From a bacterium (GTDB lineage: Bacteria > UBP6 > UBA1177), in the NCBI GenBank assembly GCA_017961325.1, contig JAGCXM010000028.1, positions 21,781-85,780 on the forward strand: DNA of 64,000 nucleotides, written 5' to 3'. Both the position numbers and the translations under genes were made by a program. The notes under the pieces were generated by a model that was not told where the DNA came from, made no database searches, and saw nothing but the letters and a program-made list of their open reading frames with translations. Below, piece after piece: positions 5,033 through 52,337 of the stretch (positions are counted from its first letter, which is position 1; each line of letters opens with the position of its first letter).

Positions 5033-5045
5033 TCTTGCCGCTGAT

Positions 5046-5121
5046 GGGCGCTTAGCTCAGCTGGGAGAGCATCGGCCTTACAAGCCGGTGGTCGCAGGTT
5101 CGATCCCTGCAGCGCCTACCA
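5046..5121 (+). tRNA. tRNA-Val (anticodon TAC)
   Basis: GGGCGCTTAGCTCAGCTGGGAGAGCATCGGCCTTACAAGCCGGTGGTCGCAGGTTCGATCCCTGCAGCGCCTACCA; cloverleaf with anticodon loop CTTACAA. Confidence 0.9.
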
Positions 5122-5138
5122 TCTTTGAAAATTGAGGC

Positions 5139-5215
<77 letters not shown>

Positions 5216-5249
5216 TTTTCAATTTTTTTCCGTAAAATTTTTTTGATTT

Positions 5250-7106: not shown

Positions 7107-7125
7107 GCTTTCAAATAAAAAGAAA

Positions 7126-8451: not shown

Positions 8452-10941
<2,490 letters not shown>

Positions 10942-10952
10942 CGGAGGGAAAA

Positions 10953-32788: not shown

Positions 32789-33793
32789 TTATGAAAGTTC
32801 CGCAAGGGTTTTCATAGCGTCGGAAAGGCCTTTGTACATCTTTTCGTATTCTTCCTTTCCCCAATCTTTCGGGTTTTTGCGGATGAAGGTCGTGAGATCT
32901 TCGCGGTTGTCGAATCTTGCGACCGGAATATTCCATTTTTTGGTTGCGAAAACATCTTTTCCGTCCTTTTTGACCGTAACGGTGCGTTCGACTTTGACCG
33001 TATCATGCTTGTCGCTCGTTTCGATGAGGTAAGCCATGTCGTCGCAGCCGTATTCGCCGAGCATGACTTCAAGCGGAACGCCGTGGTTGAGGATGGAGCT
33101 TTCTCCGTTCGGTTTCGCTCGTTCGTAGTTCTTTCTTCTGCTTTCTTCCGGCGTTACCCAGACGTAAAGTATCGAAGCTCTGTTGAGGATGTGCTCGGAG
33201 AACATCTCAAATGCCGAAGCATAACCCTGCGGAGGTGTAAGAGGCATTTTCGCGCCGTTTGCTCCGCCGCGAGCGAGCTCGATGACGATTGTTTTGTTTG
33301 TTTTGTCAGCAGCCGCCGTTGCATTTTTTTCTTTAAGAAATTCAGCTACTTCCGCTTCAATGGCCTTTCCAGCTGCAACTCTTATGTCCCACGGGATTTT
33401 TCCGAATTCGCGACCGAGATCGAGTTTTTCGCGGATGTTGTCCATCCTGTCGAAAAGCCACTGTGCAGCCGACGGAACATTGATTATATTGGAATTTACA
33501 AGGTCTTCGTAATCTTCGTTGAGAAGTTCGATAAGAGTTGACCACTCCATCGGATCCTTGAAAGGACGCGTCGCACCTTTGTAGAAAATATAGTGCCAGC
33601 CGAGCTTTGCAAGCTCGTCGTCAATTCTGTGCATGAAGTGAACGTAAGGATAGTCGTCAAGCTGAAGCGTCTCGCCCATGTGCATGTCGTTTTCGCACTG
33701 CTCGCGGGTAAGATGTTCCATGAATCTGCGGACTTCAGACTTTCCGGAAGCGGGAAGAGCCAGCAGCAAAACGGTGTCAAGCAATTTTTTCAT
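32789..33793 (-). CDS. Hypothetical protein with a P-loop resembling the 6-phosphofructo-2-kinase/zeta-toxin kinase Walker A (LLALPASGKSE). Start taken at ATG 33791-33793, which is preceded by AGGAGAG; the ORF track extends to 33907.
   Basis: GLPARGKT-like motif; otherwise unassigned. Confidence 0.45.
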   Translation of the reverse strand: MKKLLDTVLLLALPASGKSEVRRFMEHLTREQCENDMHMGETLQLDDYPYVHFMHRIDDELAKLGWHYIFYKGATRPFKDPMEWSTLIELLNEDYEDLVNSNIINVPSAAQWLFDRMDNIREKLDLGREFGKIPWDIRVAAGKAIEAEVAEFLKEKNATAAADKTNKTIVIELARGGANGAKMPLTPPQGYASAFEMFSEHILNRASILYVWVTPEESRRKNYERAKPNGESSILNHGVPLEVMLGEYGCDDMAYLIETSDKHDTVKVERTVTVKKDGKDVFATKKWNIPVARFDNREDLTTFIRKNPKDWGKEEYEKMYKGLSDAMKTLAELS

Positions 33794-33931
33794 TGTTCTC
33801 TCCTCTGTCAAAAAATTAAAACACGCTTTTATAAACAATAACGGAAAAAGAGTCAAAAAATGTAAATTCAGTCTGATTATAATTTTCATTTTGCAAAAAA
33901 AATTCAATGTGTTATAAGGACGCGGTTATTT

Positions 33932-35014
33932 ATGGAGACGCCCATGCTGATTCCTTTTTCAGAAGTCAAGTTTCATTCGCCCGATTTTGACGGAAAATTT
34001 GTTCCCTCTTTTCTGAACGACATTGCCCGTGACGGCGAATTTCAAAACGGAATACTCATTTGCGAGACATCGAACAAAACCGGATATGTTCTGATTTCAG
34101 ACGGCAGAGCGGTTTTGTCGCGCGGAATAGCCTTTTCAAACGAAGGAGAGGTCTTTGCCTCCGTTCCGATAGAATCCTTTTTGGAAGAACAGCATTTGGA
34201 ACTTACGTTGGCAAGTGTAAAAAATGATAATGTTTTAAAGTACTTGTCTGATTTTTTGGCTTATCCTCATTTTATTTGTTCGCCGTATCGTTTCGTAAAT
34301 GTTCCTTTTCTGGTTTCATATCTGTCGGGGCAGAAAGAGAGTGCGCTGATAGCTTTCAAGCACGGTCAGGCGATAGATATCGTCGCTTTCGACAAAGGGA
34401 ATTTTTCTTTTCTCGCTCTTTTTGACAGCAGGAAAAACGTTTACATTTTTGAAGACAATCCGGTTAATTTCGGCGCATATTTGGGTAATTTGGACATTAC
34501 TAAACCGATTGTTCTCGGGATAAAGATTTCGGAGAATCTTTTTTCTTCTTTCGGTTTCAGCAGCGGGCTTGATTTTATTGAAAAGGATCTCGTCTCTGAG
34601 GAGGCCGGAGTTTATTTCAATGCCTTTTCCGCTGTTTTCAAGGTTTTTGCGGAAATTCTGCCGCCGGAGAACGTGGCAGCCCTTGCCGGAAAAATCCTTT
34701 CTTACCTAAAAGGCAAGTATCCGCAGGTTTATTCTTTGCTTGAATATTCGCCCGAAAGAGGCACCGTAAACTGGGAATCTCTTCTCGAAACCAGAAAATT
34801 CGTTGCGGAAGAATACCGTTTTGCCGCCTATCACGGCTATCTTGACGAAATTCTTCTCCTTTTGCTGAGAAGTGCGAATTCTTTGCTGAAGCCGAGGGAA
34901 ATGAAGGCGCTTGAACTTGATGTCAGGGTTTTGTTTCAGGGCGCGGAGGATAAGAACAAAGATTTTTCAGGAATGTTTGACAGATTCGATAAATTGTTGA
35001 AAATCCTGCAGTAG
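33932..35014 (+). CDS. Hypothetical protein (360 aa), possibly carrying a DUF4388/PATAN-like N-terminal domain
   Basis: Weak resemblance only (..GILICETSNKTGYVLISDGRAV..); first gene of a co-directional cluster with the FHA, ankyrin and ParA-like genes. Confidence 0.4.
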   Translation: METPMLIPFSEVKFHSPDFDGKFVPSFLNDIARDGEFQNGILICETSNKTGYVLISDGRAVLSRGIAFSNEGEVFASVPIESFLEEQHLELTLASVKNDNVLKYLSDFLAYPHFICSPYRFVNVPFLVSYLSGQKESALIAFKHGQAIDIVAFDKGNFSFLALFDSRKNVYIFEDNPVNFGAYLGNLDITKPIVLGIKISENLFSSFGFSSGLDFIEKDLVSEEAGVYFNAFSAVFKVFAEILPPENVAALAGKILSYLKGKYPQVYSLLEYSPERGTVNWESLLETRKFVAEEYRFAAYHGYLDEILLLLLRSANSLLKPREMKALELDVRVLFQGAEDKNKDFSGMFDRFDKLLKILQ

Positions 35015-35028
35015 TGTTTTTTTAGAGG

Positions 35029-35916
35029 GTGAGTCCGGTGCTGAAGCTTATAGTCGAAAACGACAGGAACGAGTTGAATGTTTTTGAGTTTAACGGAAAT
35101 CTGATAACTGTCGGCCGGAGTGAAAAAAACGATCTCGTTCTGAACGAAAGAAACGTTTCGCGCTATCATTTCCAGCTTGAAATAATTGACGACAGGATAA
35201 TTATCAGCGACTGCAGAAGTTTCAACCACACTTTTGTCGACGAGCGCGAACTTTTCGGCGAAAAGCTCGAAATTTTTGTGGGAAATGTCATAACTGTCGG
35301 AGATTACAACATATATCTTGAAGAGGACGATGAGTCTCTGCTCAAAACTGTTCAGATGGCAGTCGAAACCGAGGGGCATAAGATAGCTTCCGAAAATCTT
35401 CTTCTCGCAAAGAACGGCTATTTGGGCGGAAAGGTTTTTCCGATCACCGGACGTGAAACCGTAATCGGAAGCCATGCGAGTGCCGATGTCTACATTTCGT
35501 CAAACGATATTCCTCCGATCCATTCGAAAATCGTGTTCGACGGCAACATTTATCTTCTCGTAAAAGGCGACTACAATGCCGATTATCCGCTTGTCGTCAA
35601 CGATACCAGAGTCGATTCGGTCGATATGAGGAACGGTGACGAAATCAGAATCGGCGACTATATTTTCGAGTTTGTCGAAAAGGGGGAGGAGTACGATCCG
35701 CTCCCCTATCAGCATGTCGCTGAAGAGACGAGAAAAGAAAAGCTGAGAAAAGACATAAAAGGCAAAAAAATAAAAAGTATCAACGATGAAGAACGAGATG
35801 AAAAAACCGAAATCACCCGCATCGAAAAGGGTTCGGGCGGCGGAAAAACAGTTTTGATTCTTGCCGCGCTTGCCGTTTTGGCTGCGGTTTTCGTAATTTT
35901 CTTTTTTGTTCTCTGA
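35029..35916 (+). CDS. Protein with two FHA domains and a C-terminal transmembrane anchor (GTG start)
   Basis: NLITVGRSEKNDLVLNERNVSRYHFQL and RETVIGSHASADVYISSNDIPPIHSKIVFDG FHA signatures; C-terminal hydrophobic segment. Confidence 0.7.
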   Translation: MSPVLKLIVENDRNELNVFEFNGNLITVGRSEKNDLVLNERNVSRYHFQLEIIDDRIIISDCRSFNHTFVDERELFGEKLEIFVGNVITVGDYNIYLEEDDESLLKTVQMAVETEGHKIASENLLLAKNGYLGGKVFPITGRETVIGSHASADVYISSNDIPPIHSKIVFDGNIYLLVKGDYNADYPLVVNDTRVDSVDMRNGDEIRIGDYIFEFVEKGEEYDPLPYQHVAEETRKEKLRKDIKGKKIKSINDEERDEKTEITRIEKGSGGGKTVLILAALAVLAAVFVIFFFVL

Positions 35917-35931
35917 TTTTTAGTTTCCGAA

Positions 35932-36639
35932 ATGCGTTTGCCGATAATCTTTTTTATTCTTTTTTTCTTTATCGCATGCACACAGAGCAATGCCGGCATT
36001 CTCAACAGAATGGGTTATGAAGCCGACGGAATCGGTTTTCTGGAAGCTGTTGAAAACGACGACTCTGCGGCGGTCGGAATTTTTTTGAAAATGCCCCATC
36101 TTATTAATTTTGCTGATAAATCAGGGAGAACTGCCGTGATGCTGGCTTCCCGGAAAAAGGATTCAAAAATGCTTGAAAAGCTGATAAATTCTGGTGCAAA
36201 CCTTAAAATCATGGATAATGCCGAAAAAACTCCGCTGCATTACGCCGTCGCCGCAAACTCTTTGGAAAATGCGAAGATTCTCATTGAAAATGGTGCCGAC
36301 GTGAACTGGCGTGATAACTACGGACGTGATGCGCTAAACACTTTCCTTAATTTCGCAAAAGAAGAAAATGTTGAATTGTTTCAAATGCTTGTCGCCGAAT
36401 CAGACGATCTGGAAAGGCGCGATAACGACAAAAAAACGCTTTTGATAGTTGCCGCCGAAAAGGGTTTCGGCAGGTGTGTCAGAATTCTTATGTCGCGCAG
36501 CGTTTCGCCGCTTGCCAAGGATTTTAAGGGAAAAATCGCTCTTGAGTATGCGGCCGAATCGCTTGAAGCCGGCAGAATCGATGCCGGAACATTCAATGAA
36601 CTTGAAATTTATACTCAGAAAATAAAAGAAAAACTGTGA
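35932..36639 (+). CDS. Ankyrin-repeat lipoprotein
   Basis: Lipobox FIACTQ; about five ANK repeats (TPLHYAVAANSLENAKILIENGADVN...). Confidence 0.7.
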   Translation: MRLPIIFFILFFFIACTQSNAGILNRMGYEADGIGFLEAVENDDSAAVGIFLKMPHLINFADKSGRTAVMLASRKKDSKMLEKLINSGANLKIMDNAEKTPLHYAVAANSLENAKILIENGADVNWRDNYGRDALNTFLNFAKEENVELFQMLVAESDDLERRDNDKKTLLIVAAEKGFGRCVRILMSRSVSPLAKDFKGKIALEYAAESLEAGRIDAGTFNELEIYTQKIKEKL

Positions 36640-36645
36640 CGGAGG

Positions 36646-38259
36646 TTGACAATGGTAAAACTGATTGCCGCGTTTTCGCCTAAGGGCGGAGCAGGAACTT
36701 CGCTCATAATCGCGAATCTTTCGATTTATCTTGCGCAGAAGGGGAAAAAGGTTCTTCTGATTGATGCCGCGCCTAACGGGGGAACGCTCCACTCCTATCT
36801 CAATCTTCCGACAATCGCCGTTTCCGATGAAGTCGCGGAACATTTTTCGGTTCTGCCGCTTATTTCTACTGATTATCAAAATCTTAGTTTTTTCAGTAAC
36901 TTACTGCATCAGGGCACGAAAGTCAGCGAACTTTTGGTGCGCTGGCAGATGGAAATCCGGCAGGGACAGTTCGACTTCGTTTTCATCGATATGGGTTCCG
37001 TGATAAATTCAGATCTGATGGAGGTCATCGGAATCGCCGACTATTCGCTGATGTTCATTTCGCCCGATTTCGTTTCGTTTGAAAAGAGCAACTATTTTTT
37101 CAGGGAGCTTGTCAACTACCGTCTGAGAAACGTCGAACTAAAGTACGACATTCTTCTTGAGACGCAGAACATAAGGCGTGCCAAGAAGGATTATCTTTTC
37201 ACATTCAGAAACCTGCTCGTTCTCCTTTCCCAGGCGATTCCAAAAAATTCAAACCAGATCGCCAATATTGAAGATCTCAAGATCGGAATAGTCTACAACG
37301 GAATGAAAAACTCGGCCGACAAGGAGCTGGCATCGCTTTACCAGTTCATAATCAGCAGCAGTTTCGGAGTCGAGAGCGACTGTATTGCCGAAATAGCATA
37401 TTCAGACCTTGTTCCGACTTCTATTGCCGCGATGAAACCTGTCGTTACTCTTGAAAAAAATGCCGAATTTATTGATGTTCTTGATAATCTGGCAAGTACT
37501 CTTTCGGGTTATCTGTTCCAGAAGAGCCCGCTTAAAAAGAAGTTGAAAATCACGCCGTTCAACTATTATGAATGGTTCGGTCTTGACCGCGGATGTACCT
37601 CTTTAGACATCAAAACGCAGTATGAAAAACTGAAAAAGCTTTATGTCGTCGAAAATCCGATCCTGCGCGACATTTACAGTGACAGCGACCTTTTCATCAT
37701 CAATGCGCTGCTCGACACTGTTTTCAGTGAGTTGAACGACCCGGAAATCAGGCGTGAATACGACATGGACATCGACAGTCACCTCGTTTCGCTTGAAACA
37801 TCGTTTCCCGACATTTTCATAATCGGCGAGGTCATTAAAAAGTATAACCGCGGAAAGAAAAGGGAAACTCTTGTGAAAAAGGACGTTTTCGGTCGCAGTG
37901 CGGAGAAAAATGTTCCGTCTCAGACAGAGTCCGATTTTGTTGATGTGAATGAAATATTTAACAAATACAAAGAGTTGCCTGTAACCGGCGATTTGCTGCG
38001 CAAGATCCGTGAGGAGGCCGGCATTTCTTACGAACTTATAATTTCCCGGACGAAAATATCGAACGGAGTCCTCTACGCGATTGAAAACGATATGTATTCG
38101 CAGCTTCCTGCCGATCTTTACGTCAAAAATTTCGTTCAGCAGTATTGCAGGACTCTCAAACTCAGCGCCGAAAACACCGAACTCATAGCCTGGGGTTACC
38201 TCAAATCGAAAAATAAGCCTGCAACAGTGGAAAATACCGCTGTTTCTGAGACAAATTAG
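36646..38259 (+). CDS. Multidomain protein: ParA/MinD-like domain with a degenerate deviant Walker A (KGGAGTS, P-loop lysine missing), a J-domain-like segment lacking HPD, and a RodZ-type HTH (HTH_25)
   Basis: MVKLIAAFSPKGGAGTSLIIANLSIYLAQKGKKVLLIDAAPNGG...; YYEWFGLDRGCTSLDIKTQYEKLKKLY...; C-terminal LLRKIREEAGISYELIISRTKISNGVLYAIENDMYSQLPADLYVKNFVQQYCRTLKL. Confidence 0.6.
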   Translation: MTMVKLIAAFSPKGGAGTSLIIANLSIYLAQKGKKVLLIDAAPNGGTLHSYLNLPTIAVSDEVAEHFSVLPLISTDYQNLSFFSNLLHQGTKVSELLVRWQMEIRQGQFDFVFIDMGSVINSDLMEVIGIADYSLMFISPDFVSFEKSNYFFRELVNYRLRNVELKYDILLETQNIRRAKKDYLFTFRNLLVLLSQAIPKNSNQIANIEDLKIGIVYNGMKNSADKELASLYQFIISSSFGVESDCIAEIAYSDLVPTSIAAMKPVVTLEKNAEFIDVLDNLASTLSGYLFQKSPLKKKLKITPFNYYEWFGLDRGCTSLDIKTQYEKLKKLYVVENPILRDIYSDSDLFIINALLDTVFSELNDPEIRREYDMDIDSHLVSLETSFPDIFIIGEVIKKYNRGKKRETLVKKDVFGRSAEKNVPSQTESDFVDVNEIFNKYKELPVTGDLLRKIREEAGISYELIISRTKISNGVLYAIENDMYSQLPADLYVKNFVQQYCRTLKLSAENTELIAWGYLKSKNKPATVENTAVSETN

Positions 38260-38271
38260 CGGGAGAGAAGC

Positions 38272-39129
38272 ATGAAATCAGATCTTTTCAAACCGATTTT
38301 CGATTATTTCGGTTTCAGATATCCGGGCGCATACATGACGATTCTCTTTTTTTCGTTTTTCATGACGCTGCCGATAATGGTTTTTTCCTCAAAGCGGTTC
38401 GATCTGAGCTTCAGGAAAATGGTCGGCATGCCGCTTGTCATCGTGCCGTGCGCTCTTGTTTTTTCAAAGATTTTCCATGTTTTTTTTGACGGAATGATTA
38501 CGACCTATATAAACGGTTTGGAAGAGAACGGAATTTCATATCTTTTTAAAGTAATGCTCAACCCTTTCAAGCCCGGACATGTTTTTTACGGCGGACTTTT
38601 CGGCGGATTTCTGGCCGGCGCGCTTTTCACTCTGGCGGCATATCCGCACGATGAAAAATCTTTTCTAAAAACAGCAGACGCCGCTTCGATTTGTGTCGCA
38701 AACGGACTCTGGCTGACAAGAATCGGCTGTTTTCTTGAAGGATGCTGTTTCGGAATCCCGTCGAGAATTTTCGGAATCAGTTTCCCCCGAGGCTCGAAGA
38801 CGATGTTTATGCTTTACACGCTTGATCCCGAGCATACTAGTCTTGTCAGTGACACTCAGCCGATAATTCCTACACAGCTTATTCATTCATTCAGCAATTT
38901 CGTAATATTTGTCGTCCTTTTAAAACTTGCTTTGTCGAAAAAACCTAAAAATCCCGGATATATTTCGGCGGTTTTCCTGATTTCCTATTCGGTAACGCGC
39001 TTTTTGATAGAATTCCTGCGCTTTGATTCTCGCGGCAGTTTTTTGATGTTTTCAACAAGTCAGTGGATTTCGGTTTTTCTTTTTATCGGCGGTTGGAAGC
39101 TTTTTCAGAAAACGGAACCTGAAAAATAG
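38272..39129 (+). CDS. lgt: Prolipoprotein diacylglyceryl transferase
   Basis: Lgt signature TRIGCFLEGCCFGIPS (G-R-I-G-C-F-L-x-G-C-C-x-G) plus polytopic membrane topology. Confidence 0.75.
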   Translation: MKSDLFKPIFDYFGFRYPGAYMTILFFSFFMTLPIMVFSSKRFDLSFRKMVGMPLVIVPCALVFSKIFHVFFDGMITTYINGLEENGISYLFKVMLNPFKPGHVFYGGLFGGFLAGALFTLAAYPHDEKSFLKTADAASICVANGLWLTRIGCFLEGCCFGIPSRIFGISFPRGSKTMFMLYTLDPEHTSLVSDTQPIIPTQLIHSFSNFVIFVVLLKLALSKKPKNPGYISAVFLISYSVTRFLIEFLRFDSRGSFLMFSTSQWISVFLFIGGWKLFQKTEPEK

Positions 39130-39133
39130 CTGT

Positions 39134-40501
39134 TTAAAAACGCTGTCTTACGCAGATGACTTTAAAAGAGTTTTCTTTTGAAAGTTCCATTGTTGATCCG
39201 TATGCCATACGTATTGCCCATACTTTTTCCCCATTGTTGGTATAGGAAGTCGAACTCCAGAAAGTTTCAGTATCCATTCCTTCAAAATCGGATGCCGGAT
39301 GGAATTTATAATAATTGATCATAGTTTTAAGTTCGTTTATATTAGGAAGTCTCCAATCGTAAAATCCTGCGTATCCGCCGATTTTTCTGCAGTATTTAAG
39401 AGCGCTTTCCCAATCCTGATTGCCGCCGAACGATTTCGTCCAGACAAGGTTGTTGACGGAATCGGTAACTATTTCCTCTCCTTCTGTTCCGGATACTTTA
39501 AACGAAGGAGTTTTTAATGTTCCTTCTCCCCTTACACAACGGACGTAAAGGTAGGAAAGAGAACCGGTTGTTTTGTTTCCATCGATTTTACCCTGCAAAA
39601 AATCTAAAGCCCAGTTCTTGTCGGTATCATAAAGGTAAACATCTGAAGTCCAGAAAGGCCTTCCCGGAGTGTTCGGGAATATTTCACTGTCAATTGACGG
39701 ATTCGTTTTGCCGTAATCCACAATGGTTCCCAATTCAGCCGGAGTCGGAAGACGCCAGTCGCTGTAGCCTGCATAGTTGAGATTGTTGCAGTAGCTGACT
39801 GCTTCTGAAGGTGCACAGAGCGTTCCTGAAGAGCCGGAGCAGCCGGAGTATGTCTCCGGAAGGTTACGCTGCCAGACCAAACCCGTGATATTGTCCGTTA
39901 CCAAATCTTCCGTCGTGGTGAAACTTCTTTTTACGCAGTAACCTTTCTCTGCATACTGGGTATCCTGTCCGAAAAATGGTTCTGACGGTGCAGGACATTC
40001 TATTTCGTCATATTTGTCGAAACATTTGCTCTGACCCGTACAGAGAACTTCTGCGGAGTTGGTTTCCTGAATTTCTTGATTTGCAACATCGTCGTCAGAT
40101 CCTGAATCGGCATCATCATTCGTGTCCGAATCGGTATCATTGTCGGAAACTGAATCCGCATCGTTATTAGCGGAATCGGAATCGTCAGGGCGTTCTTCTT
40201 CCGAGTCTGCATCGCCGGAAGGTTCGCCTGAATCGGCATCATCCTCTGAAACGGTGTCGGATTCATCGCTATCCGTATCGGTGTCGTTGCCGGAATCGGT
40301 GTCTGTCTCCGTGTCGTCACCGGTGTCTGCCTCCGTGTTGTCATCGGCAGTATCCGCATCGTCGTTTTCGTTTACGGAATCGGTGTCGCTGACCGCTTCA
40401 TCATCATTTTCCGGGTAATCGGTTTTGTTTCCGTCGCTGCATCCGGTAAAAAAGATAGCCGCGCAAAGAATCAAAAAGGAAATTGTTGCTTTAAGTTTCA
40501 T
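39134..40501 (-). CDS. Lipoprotein with an acidic D/S/T-rich low-complexity region and two C-terminal Fib_succ_major/DUF1566-type domains
   Basis: Lipobox FFTGCS; WRLPTPAELGTIVDY and WRLPNINELKTMINY motifs. Confidence 0.65.
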   Translation of the reverse strand: MKLKATISFLILCAAIFFTGCSDGNKTDYPENDDEAVSDTDSVNENDDADTADDNTEADTGDDTETDTDSGNDTDTDSDESDTVSEDDADSGEPSGDADSEEERPDDSDSANNDADSVSDNDTDSDTNDDADSGSDDDVANQEIQETNSAEVLCTGQSKCFDKYDEIECPAPSEPFFGQDTQYAEKGYCVKRSFTTTEDLVTDNITGLVWQRNLPETYSGCSGSSGTLCAPSEAVSYCNNLNYAGYSDWRLPTPAELGTIVDYGKTNPSIDSEIFPNTPGRPFWTSDVYLYDTDKNWALDFLQGKIDGNKTTGSLSYLYVRCVRGEGTLKTPSFKVSGTEGEEIVTDSVNNLVWTKSFGGNQDWESALKYCRKIGGYAGFYDWRLPNINELKTMINYYKFHPASDFEGMDTETFWSSTSYTNNGEKVWAIRMAYGSTMELSKENSFKVICVRQRF

Positions 40502-40513
40502 GTTTTCTCTCCG

Positions 40514-43500
40514 TTATTCAACGCAAATTACAATATTATCGCTGGTGTTTGTTTTTGTAGCAGTCGAGAGGTCGCCTCTTAGGAAATCGAAGGCATAAGC
40601 CTTTGTAGCATCGCTGTTTAAAGTCGTTGAAGTCCAGGCTTTTCCTGTAAATTCAGGAATCAGAGATTTGCCGGTTGTCGGATCGATGAGGTAAATAAGT
40701 TCGTTGGCGGTCGGCAGTCTCATCTTGTTGACACCGTTGATATCGACTCCCTTGCATGCAGCAAGTGCCTGCTGCCATGAAACGGTGTGTGTCAGATCTT
40801 CAAAATACCAGAACGAGAAAGCCGTTTCGCCGAAAATTATTACAAGTACATTCGGGTAATCCAAGACATTGGGTTTATTGTTTCCGCAGGTTAAGCATGA
40901 AGTGTTTTTATTGTCTGAAATGACGCATTTTACCTGAGCCGTGCCGGAGTATCCCTGAGTAAGAGTTCCGTCGGAAGTTGCGAAAATACCTCCCTCTGCT
41001 GTCCAGTAATTGCCGTTCGTATTTGTAAATCCTGAATAAATATGGCTGGCTGTAGTAAAATCGGCGATTTGCGGCAGTTCAAACGCGCTCGGCAGTCTCC
41101 AGCCTGTTTGTCCGCCTAAGTTGAGATTTTTACAGTAATTTTGTGCTTCTTCAAAGTTGCATGAAGATTCATTTTCGCAGTTTTCGTAGGAAGCCGGTGT
41201 TGCTTTCTGCCAAACGGAATTGGAGAATGTTTCAGTGATAACGTCGTTTCCGACATCATAATTTTGTGTCTCATAGGAAAAGTTATTACCCTGACCGTAG
41301 AAATCGCCGCTCTCGTCTTGACAAGGTATGATCGAATTATTGTTATAGCAAAGCGTCTGTTTCGTATCAAGGAACGGACTGGTAAATGAAGTATTATTGC
41401 TGCAATCCGTAAAAATCGGCATGCATTCGTCGTTGCATGATCTGATCGGGCTGTATCCTGTAAACTGGGAGATCATAAAACAGTATAAAGTGAAATCAAT
41501 GGATCCGTTCTGTTCGCATACTTCATCTTTTCCTACAACTCCGTCGCCGCAGTAAGAAATGCCGTCGCACGTTTCGTTGCAATGACCGTGATATCCGTTG
41601 TCTTTACCGCCTTCATCGCAGATTTCAGGTGAATAACCTTCTGCAAACTCAGCAACTTCGCAACAGTTTTGGATCGTATTCCCATCGCAGCGTGGAATGG
41701 AACCGCATTCTGTTTCGCTTGCTTTCTGTATTTTTCCGTCGCCGCAGTGTTCGCCAAGACCCGAGCAGTCGGTTTTGCATTTTCCGTATTTACCGTTGTC
41801 TTCGCCGTTGTCACATGCTTCTGCACCTTCAATAATTCCGTTACCGCATAGAGGAGTCTGGCCGTTGCATATTTCGTTGCAGAAGCCTGGAGTATTGTTG
41901 TCTGCTCCGTCATCGCATGATTCTTCCGGCTGCTGTATTCCGTCACCGCAGTAACCACCTTTGCCTCTTCCCAAACAGTCGGAATCGCAACTGCCCGGAG
42001 CAGACATCTGATATGTTCCGTTGACGTCTTCTCCTTCGTCACATACTTCTCCGTGGCTGAAATCAATGTTGCCGTCCCCGCATTTCCATGTTATCGTTTC
42101 TTTGCATTTTTCATCGCATTTGCCGAATTGACCGTTTTCTGCACCGTCGTCGCAGTTTTCGAAAGCTCCCGGAACTACCTGACAGTTCGTGTAATTGTCA
42201 CAGTTTTCGCGCTGGATGATTCCGTCGCCGCATCTTTCCGTTCTGTAAGCTGAGCATTCGTCGTTGCAGTGGCCGTATGTTCCGTTGTATAAGACGTTGT
42301 CGTCGCACTCTTCGTCAGCATATAAAGTAACGATGCAGTTGTCATAGCCTGTGCAGTCGGTGCGCTGGATGATTCCGTCATTGCAGTAGCCGGTATAGCC
42401 GTTACATGTTTCATTGCAATAGTTTCCGTATCTGCCGTTGTCAAAACCGTCATCGCATGATTCTCCAGGCTGCTGTATTCCGTCGCCGCAGTGAGAGGTG
42501 CCGCTGCAAGTAGAGTTGCAGTGGTCGTATTGGCCGTTATACTGGCCTTCGTCGCATGTTTCGTTTGCTCCTTCAGCTACGACGCAGTTTTCACCGTAAC
42601 CGGTGCAGTCTTCGCGCTGGATTGTTCCGTCGTTGCATGTTCCGCCTTCGGCAAAACCGTCACAGTTCGTGTTGCAGTAGCCGGGAGCTTCTGCGGAATA
42701 CTTGCCGTTGTTTGTGCCGCTGTCGCACATTTCATTTGCACCTTCGACCACTACGCAGTTGTCATAACCGGTGCAGTCGGCGCGCTGAAGGATTCCGTCA
42801 CCGCAGTAAGCGCCTTCATTGTGGCCAGAGCAGGTATTGTTGCATTTTTCATAGCCGCCGTTGTCACTTCCGTCGTCACATGCTTCGTTTGCACCTTCAG
42901 TGACGACGCAGTTTTCACCGTAACCGTCGCAGTTTTCACGCTGAAGAATTCCGTCACCGCATGTAAGTTGTGCCGAGCAGTCGCTGTTGCAGTGATTGTA
43001 TTCGCTGTTGTATGAACCTTCGTCGCAAGCTTCGTTTGTACCTGCAACTTCAACGCAGTTTTCGTCGTAACCGGTGCAGTCTTCGCGCTGAATGATTCCG
43101 TCACCGCATTTCGGCGAATTGCCGGAGCATGTCGAATCGCAGAAACCGTACTTGCCGTTGTTGCCACCGTCGTCGCACTCTTCGCCGTCCTGTTTGGTTC
43201 CGTCACCGCAGTAGCCGGCTTCTCCGCGGCCGTTGCAGCCGTAGTTGCAGAATCCTGGAGCGTTTTGTGAATACTGACCGTTGTTTCCGCCGTCGTCGCA
43301 TGTTTCGTTCGCCCCCTCGACTACAACGCAGTTCGCGTAACCCGTGCAGTCGGCACGCTGGATTATTCCGTCGTTGCAGTGAGGAGCGGAGCCGCTGCAG
43401 CTGGAATTGCAGTATCCGCCGTATTTACCGTTGTTTGCGCCGTCGTCGCATGTTTCGTTCGCTCCTTCGACGACAACGCAGTTAGCATAACCCGTGCAGT

Positions 43501-46087
43501 CTTCGCGCTGGATTATTCCGTCGTTGCAGTATGATTTTATTCCGTCTTCCAAAGTACAGTCGGAAGTGCAGATTTTGCAGTTCGTTTGACCGTAAGGACA
43601 GTAGGGCTGGGTGTTTCCGCCGTTGTCGCATTCTTCTTCCGGCTGCTTCGTTTCGTCGCCGCAGTAACCGCCTTCGCCTTTGCCACGGCAGTCGCCGTTG
43701 CAGAAACCGGGAGCATCGTGTTTGTAATGTCCGTTGTTTGCGCCGTCGTCACAATCTTCAATGTTTTCCATGGTGATTCCGTCGCCACATTCGCCGAGTT
43801 TCGTCTTGCAGTTGTCCGAACAGTAAGCGCCGATACCTTGTTTGTTTCCGACATTCGGTTCGGCCTTGTCGCAAATTTCGAAATCCTGTTTGGTTCCGTC
43901 TCCGCAGGATCCGAACGATTCCTGACAGTTTGCGGAACAGTAGTCGCCGTCTGCCGTGTTTCCGTCGTCACAGACTTCGTTTGCATTTTTAACTACGACA
44001 CAGTCCGTGAAGCCGGTGCAGTCTTCGCGCTGAAGGATTCCGTCGCCGCAGTAAGCGACGTTTGAACCTGCCGTTTTTTCGCAGCCGGAAGTGCAGACTT
44101 CGCAGCTTGTTTCGTTGTAAGGACAGTATTCGTTGCCGTTGTTTGCTCCTTCATCGCAGCTTTCGTTGGCCCCTTCTGCCGTTGTGCAGTCGCCGAATCC
44201 TGAGCAGTTCGCACGCTGAAGCTTTCCGTCACCGCAGAAACCGCCTTCGCCTCTGCCTTTGCAGTTGCTGTCGCAGTATGCCGCTTCTGCAGATGTAGCG
44301 TATGGAGAATATTTTCCGTTGTTCTGGCGGTCGTCGCATTTTTCGCCGTTTGCTTCGTCAACACCGCCGTTGCCGCAGTATGAAGTGATTCCTGCCGTTT
44401 TTTTGCACTCGGTCGTGCAGACTTCGCAGGACGTTTCCCCATAAGCGCATTTCGTGCTGCCGTTCGGGTTCGTACCGGTTTCTCCGTTGTCGCATTCCTC
44501 GTTGCCGTTCAGTATTTTATCGCCGCAGCGTCCTTCGATTTTGCATTTATCCGAGCAGTATGGAGTGTTCGGGTCATCCGTCTTGTTCGGATCGCATTCT
44601 TCGTTCTGCTGCTTTATTCCGTCACCGCAGTAGCCTGTAATTTTTTTGCAGTCGTCGGAACAGTAGAAAGGTCCGATTCCTTCGCCGGTCGTTGCCTTGT
44701 CGCATTCTTCGTTCGGCTGCTTTATTCCGTCACCGCAGAATCTGATTTTTCCCTCTACTTTTTTACAGTCCAAAGTACAGCGTTCGCATGGAACATATGA
44801 GCCGTATTCGCAGTCCAGATTTCCGTTCCGTATGGTACCTGTTTGGCCGTTGTCGCACTGCTCAATGCCTTCCTGAATTATTCCGTCGCCGCACTCGCCG
44901 AGCAGCGTCTGGCAGTTGTCTACGCAGTATGCGCCCGTTCCTTCGCCGTTGCCGACTCCCGGTTTTGCACTGTCGCATACTTCGAGACCTTCCTGAATTA
45001 TTCCGTCTCCGCATGCTCCGAACGATGTCTTGCAGTCCGAAGAGCAGTAGTCGCCGTCTTCGTTGTTTCCGTCATCACATGCTTCGTTTGCTCCGGCAAA
45101 GACAACGCAGTCCGAGCCGTAACCGTTGCAGTTTGACCTGTGAAGAATTCCGTCTCCGCAGTCCGGAGCGTAGTCGTCGCATTTATTATTGCATTTTCCG
45201 TATTTTCCGTTGTCTGCGCCGTCGTCGCATACTTCCATATCCAGCTGGGTGATTCCGTCACCGCAGGCGTGTTCTTTCTTCTTGCAGTCTTCACTGCAGT
45301 AAGTTCCGATTCCTTCGTGTTTTCCGACACTCGGATCGGCGTTGTCGCAGACTTCAAACGACTGTTTCGTTCCGTCGCCGCATTCCCCGAGTTTTGTCTG
45401 GCAGTCTTCAGAACAGTAGGGGTTGTTTCTGGTGTCGCACTGTTCGTTCCACTGTTCTATACCGTCTCCGCAGTAGCCTGTAATTCCCTGGCAGTCGTTT
45501 CTGCAGTAGTCGCCGTCCGTACGGTTTCCGTCATCGCAGAGTTCACCGCTGTCTGCGGTTCCGTCGCCGCATGTCGCAAAAGTGCAGTTCGTACGGCAGG
45601 TCTGCCCGAGTATGCCTGGTTCGTTGCTGTTGTCGAGAGCATTGTCGCACTCTTCGCCCTCGTCTTTTATGCCGTTGCCGCATTCGGGAACATACTGATC
45701 CTCATCCGGTTCGGAGTCTGCATCGTCTTTCGGTCCGTCTCCGTCGTTCGTTCCGGAATCGGTGCTGTCCGGAATATCCGTGTCGGTACCGGTATCAGTA
45801 TCATTTTTGCCGGAATCGGTATCGTCCGCCGGTTCCTCCCCGTCCGGTATCGTGTCGGAATCTTCGGTCAGGTCTTCGTCGGATACCGGTTTGCTGCACA
45901 CTTTATTGATGCAGACAAGGCCGCTTTTACAGTCTTTGTCTTTTCTGCATTTATCACCGATGTCGCCTGATGAAGTGTTGTCTCCTCCATCGCCGCCGGA
46001 ATACTGGTCATAGAAATCCTTTTTGTCACCGCATGCGGAAAAGACAAAAATGAAAGAGAGACAGAGCAAAATTTTGAAAAACTTCAT
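40514..46087 (-). CDS. Giant (1857 aa) lipoprotein composed of ~30 Myxococcus-type cysteine-rich repeats (CGDGI.Q..E.CD.G..NG) with two C-terminal Fib_succ_major/DUF1566 domains
   Basis: Lipobox VFSACG; periodic ~45-55-aa Cys-rich units; C-terminal WRLPSAFELPQIADF and MRLPTANELIYLIDP. The many internal antisense ORFs are taken as spurious. Confidence 0.75.
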   Translation of the reverse strand: MKFFKILLCLSFIFVFSACGDKKDFYDQYSGGDGGDNTSSGDIGDKCRKDKDCKSGLVCINKVCSKPVSDEDLTEDSDTIPDGEEPADDTDSGKNDTDTGTDTDIPDSTDSGTNDGDGPKDDADSEPDEDQYVPECGNGIKDEGEECDNALDNSNEPGILGQTCRTNCTFATCGDGTADSGELCDDGNRTDGDYCRNDCQGITGYCGDGIEQWNEQCDTRNNPYCSEDCQTKLGECGDGTKQSFEVCDNADPSVGKHEGIGTYCSEDCKKKEHACGDGITQLDMEVCDDGADNGKYGKCNNKCDDYAPDCGDGILHRSNCNGYGSDCVVFAGANEACDDGNNEDGDYCSSDCKTSFGACGDGIIQEGLEVCDSAKPGVGNGEGTGAYCVDNCQTLLGECGDGIIQEGIEQCDNGQTGTIRNGNLDCEYGSYVPCERCTLDCKKVEGKIRFCGDGIKQPNEECDKATTGEGIGPFYCSDDCKKITGYCGDGIKQQNEECDPNKTDDPNTPYCSDKCKIEGRCGDKILNGNEECDNGETGTNPNGSTKCAYGETSCEVCTTECKKTAGITSYCGNGGVDEANGEKCDDRQNNGKYSPYATSAEAAYCDSNCKGRGEGGFCGDGKLQRANCSGFGDCTTAEGANESCDEGANNGNEYCPYNETSCEVCTSGCEKTAGSNVAYCGDGILQREDCTGFTDCVVVKNANEVCDDGNTADGDYCSANCQESFGSCGDGTKQDFEICDKAEPNVGNKQGIGAYCSDNCKTKLGECGDGITMENIEDCDDGANNGHYKHDAPGFCNGDCRGKGEGGYCGDETKQPEEECDNGGNTQPYCPYGQTNCKICTSDCTLEDGIKSYCNDGIIQREDCTGYANCVVVEGANETCDDGANNGKYGGYCNSSCSGSAPHCNDGIIQRADCTGYANCVVVEGANETCDDGGNNGQYSQNAPGFCNYGCNGRGEAGYCGDGTKQDGEECDDGGNNGKYGFCDSTCSGNSPKCGDGIIQREDCTGYDENCVEVAGTNEACDEGSYNSEYNHCNSDCSAQLTCGDGILQRENCDGYGENCVVTEGANEACDDGSDNGGYEKCNNTCSGHNEGAYCGDGILQRADCTGYDNCVVVEGANEMCDSGTNNGKYSAEAPGYCNTNCDGFAEGGTCNDGTIQREDCTGYGENCVVAEGANETCDEGQYNGQYDHCNSTCSGTSHCGDGIQQPGESCDDGFDNGRYGNYCNETCNGYTGYCNDGIIQRTDCTGYDNCIVTLYADEECDDNVLYNGTYGHCNDECSAYRTERCGDGIIQRENCDNYTNCQVVPGAFENCDDGAENGQFGKCDEKCKETITWKCGDGNIDFSHGEVCDEGEDVNGTYQMSAPGSCDSDCLGRGKGGYCGDGIQQPEESCDDGADNNTPGFCNEICNGQTPLCGNGIIEGAEACDNGEDNGKYGKCKTDCSGLGEHCGDGKIQKASETECGSIPRCDGNTIQNCCEVAEFAEGYSPEICDEGGKDNGYHGHCNETCDGISYCGDGVVGKDEVCEQNGSIDFTLYCFMISQFTGYSPIRSCNDECMPIFTDCSNNTSFTSPFLDTKQTLCYNNNSIIPCQDESGDFYGQGNNFSYETQNYDVGNDVITETFSNSVWQKATPASYENCENESSCNFEEAQNYCKNLNLGGQTGWRLPSAFELPQIADFTTASHIYSGFTNTNGNYWTAEGGIFATSDGTLTQGYSGTAQVKCVISDNKNTSCLTCGNNKPNVLDYPNVLVIIFGETAFSFWYFEDLTHTVSWQQALAACKGVDINGVNKMRLPTANELIYLIDPTTGKSLIPEFTGKAWTSTTLNSDATKAYAFDFLRGDLSTATKTNTSDNIVICVE

Positions 46088-49257: not shown

Positions 49258-49995
49258 TTGACGGAGGTGGACGTGAGACAGACAAAAGGCTTTTCATTGA
49301 TCGAATTGATGATTGCTTTGGGAATAGTTACGATTCTGGCGACTATTGCCGTTCCCAGAGTTCAAGTCTGGAATGCCAGAAACCGCGGTTTGCAGTTGAT
49401 TATGGAGATCGTCTCGGATTTTTCAAAGGCAAAGTTGATAGCCGTATCTACGGTTGTTAAAAACGATGGCGGGTCCGAAGGAAAAATCGAGGTTCCATCC
49501 GGTAACGGTTCCAATACCGTCAACCTTGGCACGCGGCCTCAGGTTGCAATGGTTTTCTGGTCAGATGGATATAAGATTCTGCAAAAGGCATCACTGAACA
49601 GTAATTGGGAAAACGCTGAAAGTCTTAGAACACAGAAACTGCTTGACTATGTCCATATCGCAACCTTTGCTGACAGCAACATTAACGAGAATATCGTAAT
49701 GAGCAAGGGTTTTTCAAATGCGAAATCCATCGTTTTTACTTCAACCGGATTTGTCAAAAATCAGGACGGTGGCATGATAGAACCGAAACCGAGCAGTGAT
49801 TATGAGTGCGGCGATGTAGATACTAAATTGGCGTCGATTTTTTCAGCTGTTGTGAAAGCCAAGATCAGCGGCACGACAGATGCGATTTGTTACAGGGGTA
49901 TTGTAGATCAGGCCGGGAGATACAACATTTGCATGACTTTTGCACAGGGAGGCGCTGATTGTGATTTCTCAAAAGGATCCGTTGTTGAAATGTAG
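49258..49995 (+). CDS. Type IV minor pilin, FimU/GspH-like (prepilin-type N-terminal cleavage/methylation domain). Probable true start is GTG 49273, giving leader MRQTKG|FSLIEL.
   Basis: KGFSLIELMIALGIVTILATIAVP class-III signal peptide; RBS GGAGG at 49263-49267. Confidence 0.75.
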   Translation: MTEVDVRQTKGFSLIELMIALGIVTILATIAVPRVQVWNARNRGLQLIMEIVSDFSKAKLIAVSTVVKNDGGSEGKIEVPSGNGSNTVNLGTRPQVAMVFWSDGYKILQKASLNSNWENAESLRTQKLLDYVHIATFADSNINENIVMSKGFSNAKSIVFTSTGFVKNQDGGMIEPKPSSDYECGDVDTKLASIFSAVVKAKISGTTDAICYRGIVDQAGRYNICMTFAQGGADCDFSKGSVVEM

Positions 49996-50004
49996 GAGAA
50001 AAAT

Positions 50005-50586: not shown

Positions 50587-50599
50587 GAAGGAGTGATAT

Positions 50600-51706: not shown

Positions 51707-51714
51707 GGTGAAAA

Positions 51715-52323: not shown

Positions 52324-52337
52324 ATAAGAGGTGTGAT

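Follow-up and report, generated by a model that had tools for sequence, protein, structure and literature searches.

An FHA-domain membrane protein and a MinD-like fusion protein, encoded close together in an uncultured rumen bacterium of candidate phylum UBP6 (genus UBA1177-like), probably form with a Hanks-type Ser/Thr kinase a signalling scaffold of a new kind, acting on the cell envelope or on cell shape, a function predicted here from sequence and modelled structure. Our more specific reading, which we hold tentatively and at somewhat less than an even chance, is that rearrangement has left at this locus part of an operon, found throughout UBP6 and related MAGs, for a kinase-controlled, membrane-recruited, RodZ-like morphogenetic scaffold. 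The original prediction, which wrongly took the lineage for Fibrobacterota, recognised no described system with this combination of domains, and we found none either. All positions given below refer to the window, the whole 64,000-nucleotide stretch of DNA that was analysed.

Four genes (G1 to G4) and lgt lie on the plus strand, separated by spacers of 6-17 nt that carry ribosome-binding sites. They are G1 (33932-35014), a 360 aa ORF for an orphan cytoplasmic protein; G2 (35029-35916), encoding a 295 aa protein that is tail-anchored in the inner membrane and has two FHA domains on the cytoplasmic side; G3 (35932-36639), encoding a 235 aa ankyrin-repeat lipoprotein; G4 (36646-38259), encoding a soluble 537 aa fusion of MinD-like, J-like and HTH_25 parts; and lgt (38272-39129), the prolipoprotein diacylglyceryl transferase gene (PF01790, E=1e-34). 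The coordinates and spacers on which a probable operon ending at lgt had been proposed were exact, and we also regard G1-G2-G3-G4-lgt as a probable operon with lgt as its final gene. A convergent gene is found at 39134, just past lgt, and terminator-like sites are not enriched inside the block (10, versus 8.3 +/- 3.4 in shuffled sequence). Homologues and the positions of ribosome-binding sites suggest slightly later true starts for G1 (33944) and G4 (an ATG at 36652), and possibly for G2 (35038). Across the rumen clade G2 and G4 are 79-86% identical and Lgt 75-82%; being as conserved as Lgt, both are under purifying selection. A pseudopilin/PilY1-like cluster lies 11 kb downstream, within the window. 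The domains originally assigned to G2 (double FHA, membrane segment), G3 (ankyrin lipoprotein) and G4 (ParA/MinD fold, J domain without HPD, RodZ-type HTH) were all recovered in the searches described below.

The original prediction had noted that no partner kinase is encoded in the window, which tblastn bore out, and had suggested a search for STPK genes elsewhere. We compared 28 related genomes, 19 of them non-rumen, and in all 19 non-rumen loci G4 is followed by a gene for a membrane Hanks Ser/Thr kinase with a PEGA ectodomain, the gap being -14 to +19 nt in the 17 of these loci where it was measurable. G1-G2 and G4 are co-directional in 22/28 related loci, with G4 identities down to 35-46%. 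The conserved core is G1-G2 ... G4 with the PEGA-ectodomain kinase directly after it. Co-occurrence in relatives, one of the points on which the original prediction was to stand or fall, was found for G1, G2 and G4. The four genes do not, however, rank equally as members of one module: G3 and the adjacency of lgt are confined to the rumen clade, and G1 is sometimes missing. We infer that in the ancestral operon of UBP6 and related MAGs a membrane Hanks kinase is coupled to a reader with FHA domains and to a scaffold that faces the cytoskeleton.

In the rumen clade the block is broken after G4, the kinase, Hsp33-like and NAD kinase genes are now elsewhere, and the ankyrin lipoprotein gene stands in place of the IF-2B-family and TPR genes between G2 and G4. 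The 465-aa kinase orthologues retain the ancestral STPK-Hsp33-like-NADK order. The accession of P0175 (MBP5405693.1) is 1,035 from that of G4 (MBP5406728.1; G1 to G4 are MBP5406725-728), and by this accession proximity the kinase orthologue was most probably relocated, not lost, lying ~1,000 genes away in the same MAG. The kinase retains the beta3 Lys, alphaC Glu, catalytic Asp, Mg-binding Asn and DFG motif, and carries a TM segment and a PEGA-like tail. Against the scaffold reading it counts that after the break the kinase kept company with Hsp33-like/NADK and not with G4, and that the kinase is atypical: it is of the non-RD type (HLD), and Asn stands where the catalytic-loop Lys would be.

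The ancestral order also contains interleaved genes for GDH, an IF-2B-family protein, an Hsp33-like protein and NAD kinase. Since housekeeping genes of this sort share the conserved order, synteny alone is no proof of functional coupling, and the genes might form no single system at all, but be unrelated genes with a synteny inherited in one lineage and merely co-transcribed here. The interleaving itself, the clade-specific nature of G3 and lgt, the dispensability of G1 in some genomes, the parting of kinase and G4 in the rumen clade and the unrelated contexts of distant G1-like genes would all fit such an explanation. We nevertheless consider it unlikely, because G4 and the kinase are translationally coupled in the 17 measurable non-rumen loci at G4 identities down to ~35%, because G2 and G4 stayed neighbours after the rearrangement though the genes between them were replaced, and because the biochemistry of an FHA reader matches that of a Hanks kinase.

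Pfam searches place two FHA regions in G2 (PF00498, E=1e-20; PF16697, E=1e-22), and its architecture recurs in 18 orthologues. Its top Pfam match is the YscD cytoplasmic domain, with weak matches to the NCBIfam models TagH and GltG and to the FhaB/FipA and OdhI models. FHA1 (residues ~18-99; 35080-35325) has the GR ... SRxH ... SxNxT pattern of a canonical phospho-threonine-binding domain, its motifs GR, SR(H/Y)H and S-x-N-x-T being conserved in an alignment of 19 G2 sequences, and it matches the FHA domain of Rv1747. FHA2 (residues ~125-220; 35401-35688) is degenerate: residue alignments to GarA and to the FHA domain of a GGDEF protein show the phosphate-binding Arg and Ser replaced (GS/GT, P-x), identically in all 19 G2 sequences, so FHA2 is probably a phospho-independent interaction domain. 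The C-terminal TM anchor (residues ~273-295; 35845-35913; hydropathy above 3) is preceded in the alignment by a run of basic residues and a T-E-(I/V)-T motif, both conserved. The motif is a candidate site of phosphorylation and may be likened to the ETTS motif of GarA, as a conserved Thr-rich motif beside FHA domains. The nearest parallel for the pairing is that of mycobacterial PknA/PknB with FhaA and FhaB (FipA, Rv0019c), in which a membrane Hanks kinase likewise works with a membrane-associated FHA protein, there in cell-envelope or division control. G2 differs from FhaA, FhaB, GarA and OdhI in having two FHA domains (one degenerate) and a C-terminal tail anchor, and it scores far under the equivalog cutoffs; PP2C phosphatase, FtsW/PBP and Wag31 genes are absent from the cluster.

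G4 has no TM segment, and its AF2 model has a pLDDT of 78. Its N-domain (36646-37530) has a complete MinD/FlhG-type SIMIBI fold, matching CbiA/AAA_31/ParA P-loop models (E=5e-9 to 3e-7) and, by Foldseek, FlhG, FleN and MinD (TMt 0.66-0.72) and BcsQ (TMt 0.62). The Walker A motif KGGAGTS (36676-36702) keeps the signature Lys and has Thr, nearly invariant across the family, in place of the cis P-loop Lys; in switch I (LIDAAP) the second, water-activating Asp is Ala, and the Walker B Asp is kept. Pocket residues K13, G14, G15, G17, S19, D40 and D115 are invariant, T18 and A42 replacing the catalytic residues, and in alignments to Aquifex MinD the structure 4v02 reads DAA as in G4 and 4v03 reads DAD. 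G4 shares the signature Lys, Walker B Asp and first switch-I Asp with MinD, FlhG and FleN, its closest overall folds, but lacks the second Lys of KGGxxK[S/T], the catalytic Asp and an amphipathic C-terminal membrane-targeting helix at the usual position, and there are no MinE, MinC or FlhF partners at the locus. With this Lys and the catalytic Asp both missing, ParA-type ATP cycling is unlikely.

The description of this domain as inactive-looking was right as to the substitutions but too strong as to inactivity, since BcsQ, a SIMIBI NTPase of cellulose secretion with the same pair of substitutions, binds ATP as a stable sandwich dimer and hydrolyses it very weakly (PMC7840130). Its constitutive ATP dimer serves as an assembly scaffold, and the BcsQ-type substitutions in an otherwise invariant pocket argue for ATP-locked dimerisation of G4 rather than a dead fold. 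G4 differs from BcsQ in keeping the signature Lys (Arg in BcsQ), in having Ala at the Asp position (Cys/Ser in BcsQ), in its two extra domains, in its score against TIGR03371 (31.5 versus a cutoff of 157.85) and in the absence of BcsR or bcs genes nearby. In six related genomes the ParA-like (~298 aa) and J/HTH (~245 aa) halves are two adjacent genes, and this fission or fusion indicates that the halves work together.

The J-like domain (residues ~304-375; 37555-37770) is modelled as a four-helix J fold (pLDDT 85-94). The single-sequence DnaJ match is sub-threshold (17.2 bits versus a cutoff of 27.8), but the family profile matches PDB J domains over the full J length (6rzy, E=1e-5; DNAJB12, E=1.2e-4). 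The HPD position reads V-x-E, and N337/P338 are conserved. HPD-less J-like proteins such as Pam16/Tim16 lack the tripeptide for Hsp70 stimulation and act as structural or regulatory modules; beyond the J fold, no kinship in sequence between them and G4 is detectable, and the context is wholly different.

The RodZ-type HTH (residues ~446-510; 37981-38175) matches HTH_25 (PF13413) at 61 bits, E=7e-17. Its top PDB matches are all RodZ homologues: 3fym (3.5e-9), CT009 (2e-6) and 2wus, the T. maritima RodZ chain crystallised with MreB (8e-6). In the alignment the invariant Y492 and F496 fall on Y66/F70 of Ct009, which correspond to F60/Y64 in E. coli. K36 of T. maritima RodZ also touches MreB, and the equivalent residue of G4 is hydrophobic, a point against the scaffold reading. 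Mutating the two RodZ aromatics abolishes RodZ-MreB binding (PMC4047632). RodZ (YfgA in E. coli, YmfM in B. subtilis and S. aureus, Ct009 in Chlamydia) thus has HTH_25 and the MreB-binding aromatic pair in common with G4. It is, however, bitopic, its HTH being N-terminal, with a TM helix behind it and in most cases a domain in the periplasm, whereas in G4 the HTH is C-terminal, no TM segment is present and MinD-like and J-like domains stand in front; G4 scores 32.6 against the NCBIfam RodZ model (cutoff 375). We did not find mreB in the ~1.4 Mb of sequence examined, which also counts against the scaffold reading.

In the scaffold reading, the kinase would sense an extracytoplasmic cue through its small PEGA-like domain and phosphorylate Thr on itself, on the juxtamembrane T-E-I-T motif of G2 or on a partner. 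G2, in the inner membrane, would read this phospho-mark through the canonical FHA1, and FHA2 would make a constitutive protein contact, G1 being the likeliest partner. G4 would be no cycling ParA, but most likely a long-lived, BcsQ-like, ATP-bound sandwich dimer that presents a pair each of HPD-less J-like modules and RodZ-type HTH domains. Since it keeps the MreB-contact aromatic pair and lacks the TM helix of RodZ, it may act as a soluble, dimeric, RodZ-like adaptor, with the kinase/FHA system controlling its membrane recruitment and, through this, how it affects MreB and the elongation machinery. Control of MreB by a kinase through RodZ has a precedent in B. subtilis, where the membrane Ser/Thr kinase PrkC phosphorylates RodZ and tunes MreB filament density (bioRxiv 10.1101/2020.08.28.272336); PrkC has PASTA domains where the kinase described here has a PEGA-like ectodomain.

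G4 could instead help to assemble or position a pilus, a polysaccharide or secretion apparatus or another such machine of the envelope, as BcsQ, TadZ/CpaE or FlhG do, with G2 as an FHA membrane platform resembling T3SS YscD or T6SS Fha/TagH under PpkA-type kinase control, and the HTH as a generic protein-binding module and no MreB binder. The YscD, TagH and GltG matches of G2, the FlhG, FleN and MinD folds and BcsQ substitutions of G4, and the ~1,170-aa TPR protein encoded between G2 and G4 in most relatives are in line with this, as are the pseudopilin/PilY1-like cluster downstream and the precedent of TadZ and BcsQ as polar localisers of secretion apparatus (PMC11407121). Against it, secretion, pilus, cellulose or flagellar genes adjoin the cluster in 0/28 loci, scores to the BcsQ, TagH, GltG and CpaE models are all far under their cutoffs, and the HTH specifically matches RodZ homologues and has kept the MreB-contact pair, so that we judge this alternative improbable, as we do inherited synteny.

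Less probable still is that G4 is a DNA-binding regulator or partition-type protein, in the manner of type Ia ParA or FleN/FleQ-like anti-activators, with an Xre-type HTH on DNA, modulation by kinase and FHA protein, and transcription or nucleoid-associated positioning as output: HTH_25 is of the Xre-like fold class, so DNA binding may be possible, G4 is soluble, weak matches to the Xre-type HTH_19 and HTH_31 were seen, and DNA is a common matrix for ParA-family proteins, but HTH_25 (61.4 bits) leads HTH_19 (24.1) and the lower-scoring HTH_31 by at least 37 bits, the closest matches by structure are to RodZ proteins, in which this fold binds MreB rather than DNA, ParA-type cycling is unlikely without the two catalytic residues, and an unsystematic look at the loci revealed no ParB-like partner or centromere-like repeat.

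As for G1, the putative partner of G2 in the scaffold reading, sequence searches of Pfam, NCBIfam and PDB gave no match, and its family comprises only 35 representative clusters among 1.84 billion proteins. In its AF2 model (pLDDT 76) two alpha/beta repeats lead into a bundle of helices at the C-terminus, without significant similarity to PDB folds (best E=2e-3, TM ~0.1). The suggested likeness to DUF4388 is a weak hint, sub-threshold in 2/31 family members (best E=0.0019). In 8/10 rumen-clade genomes and in 14 of the 16 informative non-rumen ones, G1 is the immediate upstream neighbour of G2. It is missing from L023 and from two of the ten rumen-clade genomes (L001 and L008), and G1-like proteins of more distant kind adjoin ksgA, not an FHA gene; both facts count against the scaffold reading.

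G3 is a rumen-clade insertion between G2 and G4, outside the conserved core; it was found only in that clade (L001-L008 and L026), where alone lgt adjoins G4. Its ankyrin repeats match PF12796 (Ank_2) at E=2e-24, and it has a signal peptide with a lipobox Cys, which all 9 orthologues share (10/10).

Five co-directional ORFs occupy positions 33932-39129 of the window, namely G1, an orphan of 360 amino acids (33932-35014), G2, a double-FHA protein of 295 amino acids (35029-35916), G3, an ankyrin-repeat lipoprotein of 235 amino acids (35932-36639), G4, a MinD-like/J-like/HTH_25 fusion of 537 amino acids (36646-38259), and lgt, which encodes 285 amino acids (38272-39129). The block is flanked by a divergent gene upstream and a convergent gene downstream. 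Shine-Dalgarno-like sequences are present at the gene junctions and, taken together with the N-termini of homologues, suggest that the actual starts lie at 33944 for G1, at an ATG at 36652 for G4 and perhaps at 35038 for G2. Transcription of the block as a single unit is plausible. Terminator-like hairpins within it showed no excess over shuffled sequence, and since promoter and terminator scans both gave counts at the level of shuffled sequence, the scans speak neither for nor against co-transcription. The original prediction had likened the first four genes to FHA/ParA-like modules of spatial organization or signalling; its observations were confirmed, and its interpretation was supported in part.

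We examined the distribution of the arrangement in a scan of GTDB species representatives, with one genome per species. The scan returned 28 loci (L001-L028) with true G4 orthologues at 35-86% identity, its other matches being generic MinD/ParA N-termini. The loci come from MAGs whose records carry the label “bacterium”, UBP6_UBA1177 or, inconsistently, Spirochaetales or Sumerlaeota. In a survey of the rumen, UBA1177 is assigned to phylum UBP6, in an entry separate from Fibrobacterota, and the Fibrobacterota origin first assumed for the window was given up in favor of UBP6/UBA1177. Two gene orders were found. The rumen clade (the window, L001-L008 and L026) has the order (G1)-G2-G3-G4-lgt, followed by two Lcl_C/Cys-rich surface proteins, whereas the order in the 19 non-rumen loci is GDH-G1-G2-IF-2B-family-(TPR)-G4-Ser/Thr kinase-(Hsp33-like)-NAD kinase. 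Upstream sequence was long enough in 16 of the non-rumen loci, of which 15 have G2 and 14 have G1; none of the 19 has G3 or lgt. The association of G1 and G2 with G4 and the kinase is conserved, and the presence of G3 and lgt is clade-specific. The co-occurrence in relatives expected by the original prediction was thus upheld for G1, G2 and G4 but not for G3, which is found in the rumen clade only.

Two further features of the gene order vary among the relatives. A TPR protein of ∼1,170 amino acids with a weak DUF3857 match is encoded between the IF-2B gene and G4 in at least 12 loci (for example at 5476-8997 of L020); it is reduced to an ORF of 223 amino acids in L009 and L014 and is missing from L010 and the rumen clade. 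In six genomes of one sub-lineage (L020, at 9001-10634, L021, L022, L024, L025 and L027) G4 is split into adjacent, nearly abutting genes for a ParA-like protein (∼298 amino acids) and a J/HTH protein (∼245 amino acids), and elsewhere it is a fusion, a pattern of fission and fusion indicating that the two halves function together. G4 of L028 is in pieces of 179 and 376 amino acids, which may reflect a frameshift. L011 has a lone ORF of 2,079 amino acids before G4 (878-7117) and no detectable upstream G1, G2, IF-2B or TPR gene; it keeps the G4-kinase-Hsp33-like-NADK part intact.

The window holds no partner kinase, as was noted at the outset: tblastn with the L020 kinase gave no match in its 64 kb, and neither did the GDH, IF-2B, TPR, Hsp33-like and NADK proteins of the same ancestral cluster. 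A search for Ser/Thr kinase genes elsewhere, also proposed at that stage, was productive. A kinase gene directly follows G4 in all 19 non-rumen loci; the distance between the two genes, measurable in 17, is −14 to +19 nt, and they are translationally coupled in these relatives. The kinase comprises a Pkinase domain, a TM segment and a PEGA-like ectodomain of ∼65 amino acids. When the L009 kinase was used as query, many orthologues of 465 amino acids with 66-69% identity were found in rumen-type samples. Their loci keep the ancestral downstream order kinase-Hsp33-like-NAD kinase-Smr, with varied upstream genes (AspS or RlpA/SPOR-like), indicating that the cluster was broken between G4 and the kinase. 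The orthologue considered for the window's own MAG, P0175, has the accession MBP5405693.1. The accessions of the window's G1 (MBP5406725.1) and G4 (MBP5406728.1) are three apart, fitting four consecutive genes, and P0175 lies 1,035 accessions from G4, a distance that fits a single MAG submission. We infer from this accession numbering, rather than from a contig list, that the kinase is probably encoded elsewhere in the same MAG. Comparative context paid here, since a seemingly missing kinase was found via relatives. The kinase family keeps the β3 Lys, αC Glu, catalytic Asp, Mg-binding Asn and DFG. The family is of the non-RD type (HLD), with Asn in the position of the catalytic-loop Lys (DMNPNN) in 13 of 13 aligned sequences from the L009-L028 loci and P0175. 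Such a loop is unusual for a Hanks kinase; kinase activity is plausible.

G2 contains two FHA stretches, matching PF00498 (E = 1e-20) and Yop-YscD_cpl (E = 1e-22). Its lone hydrophobic segment lies at the extreme C-terminus, which makes G2 a tail-anchored membrane protein whose two FHA domains are cytoplasmic; ahead of the TM segment, a basic stretch and the motif T-E-(I/V)-T are likewise conserved. We read the FHA residues by aligning G2 to GarA and further FHA domains of solved structure, and 19 orthologues to one another. The first domain (FHA1) carries the pThr-binding signature GR, SR(Y/H)H and S-x-N-x-T in 19 of 19 aligned sequences, whereas the second (FHA2) has, in all orthologues, GS/GT and P-x where FHA1 has GR and SR. 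For a link to T6SS threonine phosphorylation or to a T3SS YscD-type platform, no adjoining secretion-system structural genes were found in the window or the 28 related loci, and G2 scored 34 bits against a TagH model whose cutoff is 120.

G4 consists of three modules and has no hydrophobic segment. The first module (residues 1 to ∼295) has the complete SIMIBI α-β-α fold of the MinD/FlhG/FleN type (Foldseek E = 6e-9, TMt 0.66-0.72), and the protein scores above the Pfam cutoffs for CbiA, AAA_31 and ParA. Across 18 family members of 39-92% identity, K13 (the signature Lys), G14, G15, G17, S19, D40 (the first switch-I Asp) and D115 (Walker B) are invariant. The Walker A sequence is KGGAGTS, with the cis P-loop Lys replaced by Thr in 17 of the 18 members and by Ala in the other. 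Since the hallmark of ParA/MinD proteins is a deviant Walker A, KGGxxK[S/T], that includes both lysines (PMC11407121), G4 falls outside the motif for want of the second Lys. Switch I reads LIDAAP, in which the second, water-activating Asp (D40 of MinD) has become Ala; among aligned Aquifex MinD structures, 4v02 has DAA as in G4 and 4v03 has DAD. Replacement of both the cis P-loop Lys by Thr and the catalytic Asp likens G4 (T18, A42) to BcsQ (T15, C39/S), which forms crystals as a sandwich dimer with bound ATP, keeps its ATP for a long time, is only a weak ATPase and serves as an assembly scaffold (PMC7840130). Because the rest of the pocket is strongly conserved, its residues argue that G4 still binds nucleotide, which likely serves stable dimerization and not cycling. 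The domain had been described at first as an inactive-looking ParA/MinD; the fold and the replaced catalytic residues agree with that description, but the pocket is otherwise invariant and the substitutions are BcsQ-like.

The likeness to BcsQ also suits a role for G4 in positioning an envelope machine, comparable to that of BcsQ, TadZ or FlhG. G4 differs from BcsQ in scoring 31.5 bits against TIGR03371, whose cutoff is 157.85, and we found no bcs genes or BcsR context in the window or related loci; we consider this reading unlikely.

The second module of G4, at residues ∼304-375, is a J fold. The lone sequence falls under the Pfam cutoff (17.2 against 27.8), but with a 14-sequence family profile the match extends along the whole of solved J domains (E = 1e-5 and 1.2e-4), and the helices are confident in the G4 model. 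The HPD tripeptide, located between helices II and III, aligns to V-x-E in G4 and is followed by a conserved N-P, the family carrying Y-x-x-x-N-P in place of HPD. The third module, at residues ∼446-510, is HTH_25 (PF13413; 61.4 bits against a cutoff of 24.6). Its three best solved relatives are all RodZ homologues, namely 3fym, Chlamydia CT009 (4gqm) and Thermotoga maritima RodZ in complex with MreB (2wus). F60 and Y64 of Escherichia coli RodZ are critical for MreB binding, and mutation of the equivalent Y66 and F70 in Chlamydia Ct009 abolishes the interaction with MreB (PMC4047632). In profile alignments with Ct009 and T. maritima RodZ, this helix-4 aromatic pair corresponds to Y492 and F496 of G4, neither of which varies among 18 full-length and 14 J/HTH sequences. 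RodZ is bitopic, with an N-terminal HTH, one TM helix and an extracytoplasmic C-terminal part, whereas the HTH of G4 is C-terminal and G4 has no TM helix, so that it could reach the membrane only through a partner. A tblastn search for mreB, with E. coli MreB as the query, found none in the window and fetched loci, which at only ∼1.4 Mb make the result uninformative.

G1 gave no match in Pfam, NCBIfam or PDB sequence searches. A profile search of 1.84 billion proteins placed only 35 representative clusters in its family, all of ∼340-360 amino acids and none with an annotated domain. Its AF2 model, of fair quality (pLDDT 76), has two α/β repeats and a helical bundle, and Foldseek against the PDB returned only insignificant sliding-clamp-like matches (TM ∼0.1). 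DUF4388/PATAN (PF14332) had no match to the window's G1 at E ≤ 1 and did not reach its gathering threshold; it is the sole family matched by more than one G1-family member (sub-threshold in 2 of 31, best E = 0.0019), which is a weak hint of a DUF4388 link. Absence of G1 from L001 and L008 is not an artefact of ORF calling, as tblastn was empty, and the slot is taken by an unrelated opposite-strand gene. In L023, the most divergent genome (OY763407.1, a complete MAG chromosome), the place of G1 ahead of G2 is filled by a second kinase-like ORF of 594 amino acids (1681-3465), which we rejected as a divergent G1 (hhalign probability 0.1). A pairing of G1 with FHA genes outside the UBP6-type lineage was also dismissed: the distant G1 relatives at L090:8001-9083 and L093:6784-7863, in other MAGs, are followed directly by a ksgA/rsmA-type rRNA dimethyltransferase gene (RrnaAD), not an FHA gene. 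Ankyrin repeats, a signal peptide and a conserved lipobox cysteine were recognized in G3. The domain assignments with which the analysis began, two FHA domains and a membrane segment in G2, an ankyrin lipoprotein in G3, and a J domain without HPD and a RodZ-type HTH in G4, were thus all recovered.

The domain architectures and the patterns of active-site and binding-site residues are conserved, and all of the parts are of known kinds, namely a Hanks kinase, an FHA reader, a MinD-fold NTPase, a J fold and a RodZ HTH. We tentatively propose, with low confidence, that in UBP6 the job of RodZ, joining MreB filaments to the membrane, may be done by a split, signal-gated system, in which G4, a soluble, ATP-locked dimeric pseudo-ATPase, would be recruited only via G2 (with G1) reading Thr phosphorylation by the PEGA kinase. 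The more general mechanism that we favor, with somewhat more confidence but at less than even odds, is that the kinase would write a phosphate mark on Thr; FHA1 would read it at the membrane, with FHA2 making a constitutive contact, perhaps with G1; and the G4 dimer, its membrane recruitment conditional on phosphorylation, would present two RodZ-type HTH domains to MreB. A parallel is known in Bacillus subtilis, where PrkC phosphorylates RodZ and MreB filament density rises (bioRxiv 10.1101/2020.08.28.272336). Against this mechanism, housekeeping genes are interleaved in conserved order, the kinase is parted from G4 in the rumen clade, and G1 is dispensable in some genomes and has distant relatives that adjoin ksgA. 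The gene order might instead be mere inherited synteny, with the interleaved genes on its side and the G4-kinase coupling on the other, and we judge this improbable. That G4 is a DNA-binding ParA-like regulator, as an HTH joined to a ParA-like fold could suggest, seems to us quite improbable, with the HTH closest to RodZ and the Walker A outside the ParA/MinD hallmark. An anti-phage defence system was rejected because PADLOC gave generic domain matches only (none for G1 or G2, generic ankyrin for G3 and generic Pkinase for the kinase).

If phosphorylation-gated recruitment of a RodZ-like G4 were true, this would be a second, independent case, after BcsQ, of a MinD fold turned into an ATP-locked scaffold, here a static dimerizer for a cytoskeletal adaptor. 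It would also mean that the MreB-binding module of RodZ can be freed of the membrane and placed under the control of Ser/Thr phosphorylation. Such an architecture for the control of cell elongation by a kinase would be new, and it would offer a testable handle on envelope signalling in a phylum that is abundant in the rumen, uncultured and without experimental biology. The system is confined to one uncultured lineage. Our literature searches found nothing relevant on an HTH_25, ParA and DnaJ fusion architecture and no description of the combination as a whole, notably of a soluble protein in which a hydrolysis-impaired, BcsQ-like MinD fold is fused to a J domain lacking HPD and to the HTH of RodZ, in keeping with the first impression that no described system matches it.

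The surroundings of the block include gyrB/gyrA, EF-G, a transglycosylase-domain PBP, an aminotransferase and surface lipoproteins; gyrB and gyrA adjoin and are co-directional (8482-13481, + strand), which identifies the window as core chromosome. The divergent ORF at 32789-33907 (− strand) encodes 372 amino acids with a P-loop-like ALPASGKSE motif and has no family match; its true start is likely an internal Met at ∼33793, and it has a counterpart in none of the 28 related loci. At 39134-46087 (− strand) lie an Lcl_C (DUF1566-type) lipoprotein of 455 amino acids, with a long acidic Asp/Ser/Thr-rich low-complexity stretch, and after it a cysteine-rich repeat protein of 1,857 amino acids, a pair found at the same place downstream of lgt in every rumen-clade locus. 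Finally, a cluster at 49258-58715 (+ strand) includes a pair of type IV pilin/pseudopilin-like genes (49258-49995 and 50005-50586), each with an N-terminal methylation motif, together with two uncharacterized ORFs and a giant protein of 2,125 amino acids with a weak PilY1 β-propeller match, and resembles a minor-pilin/PilY1-type set.
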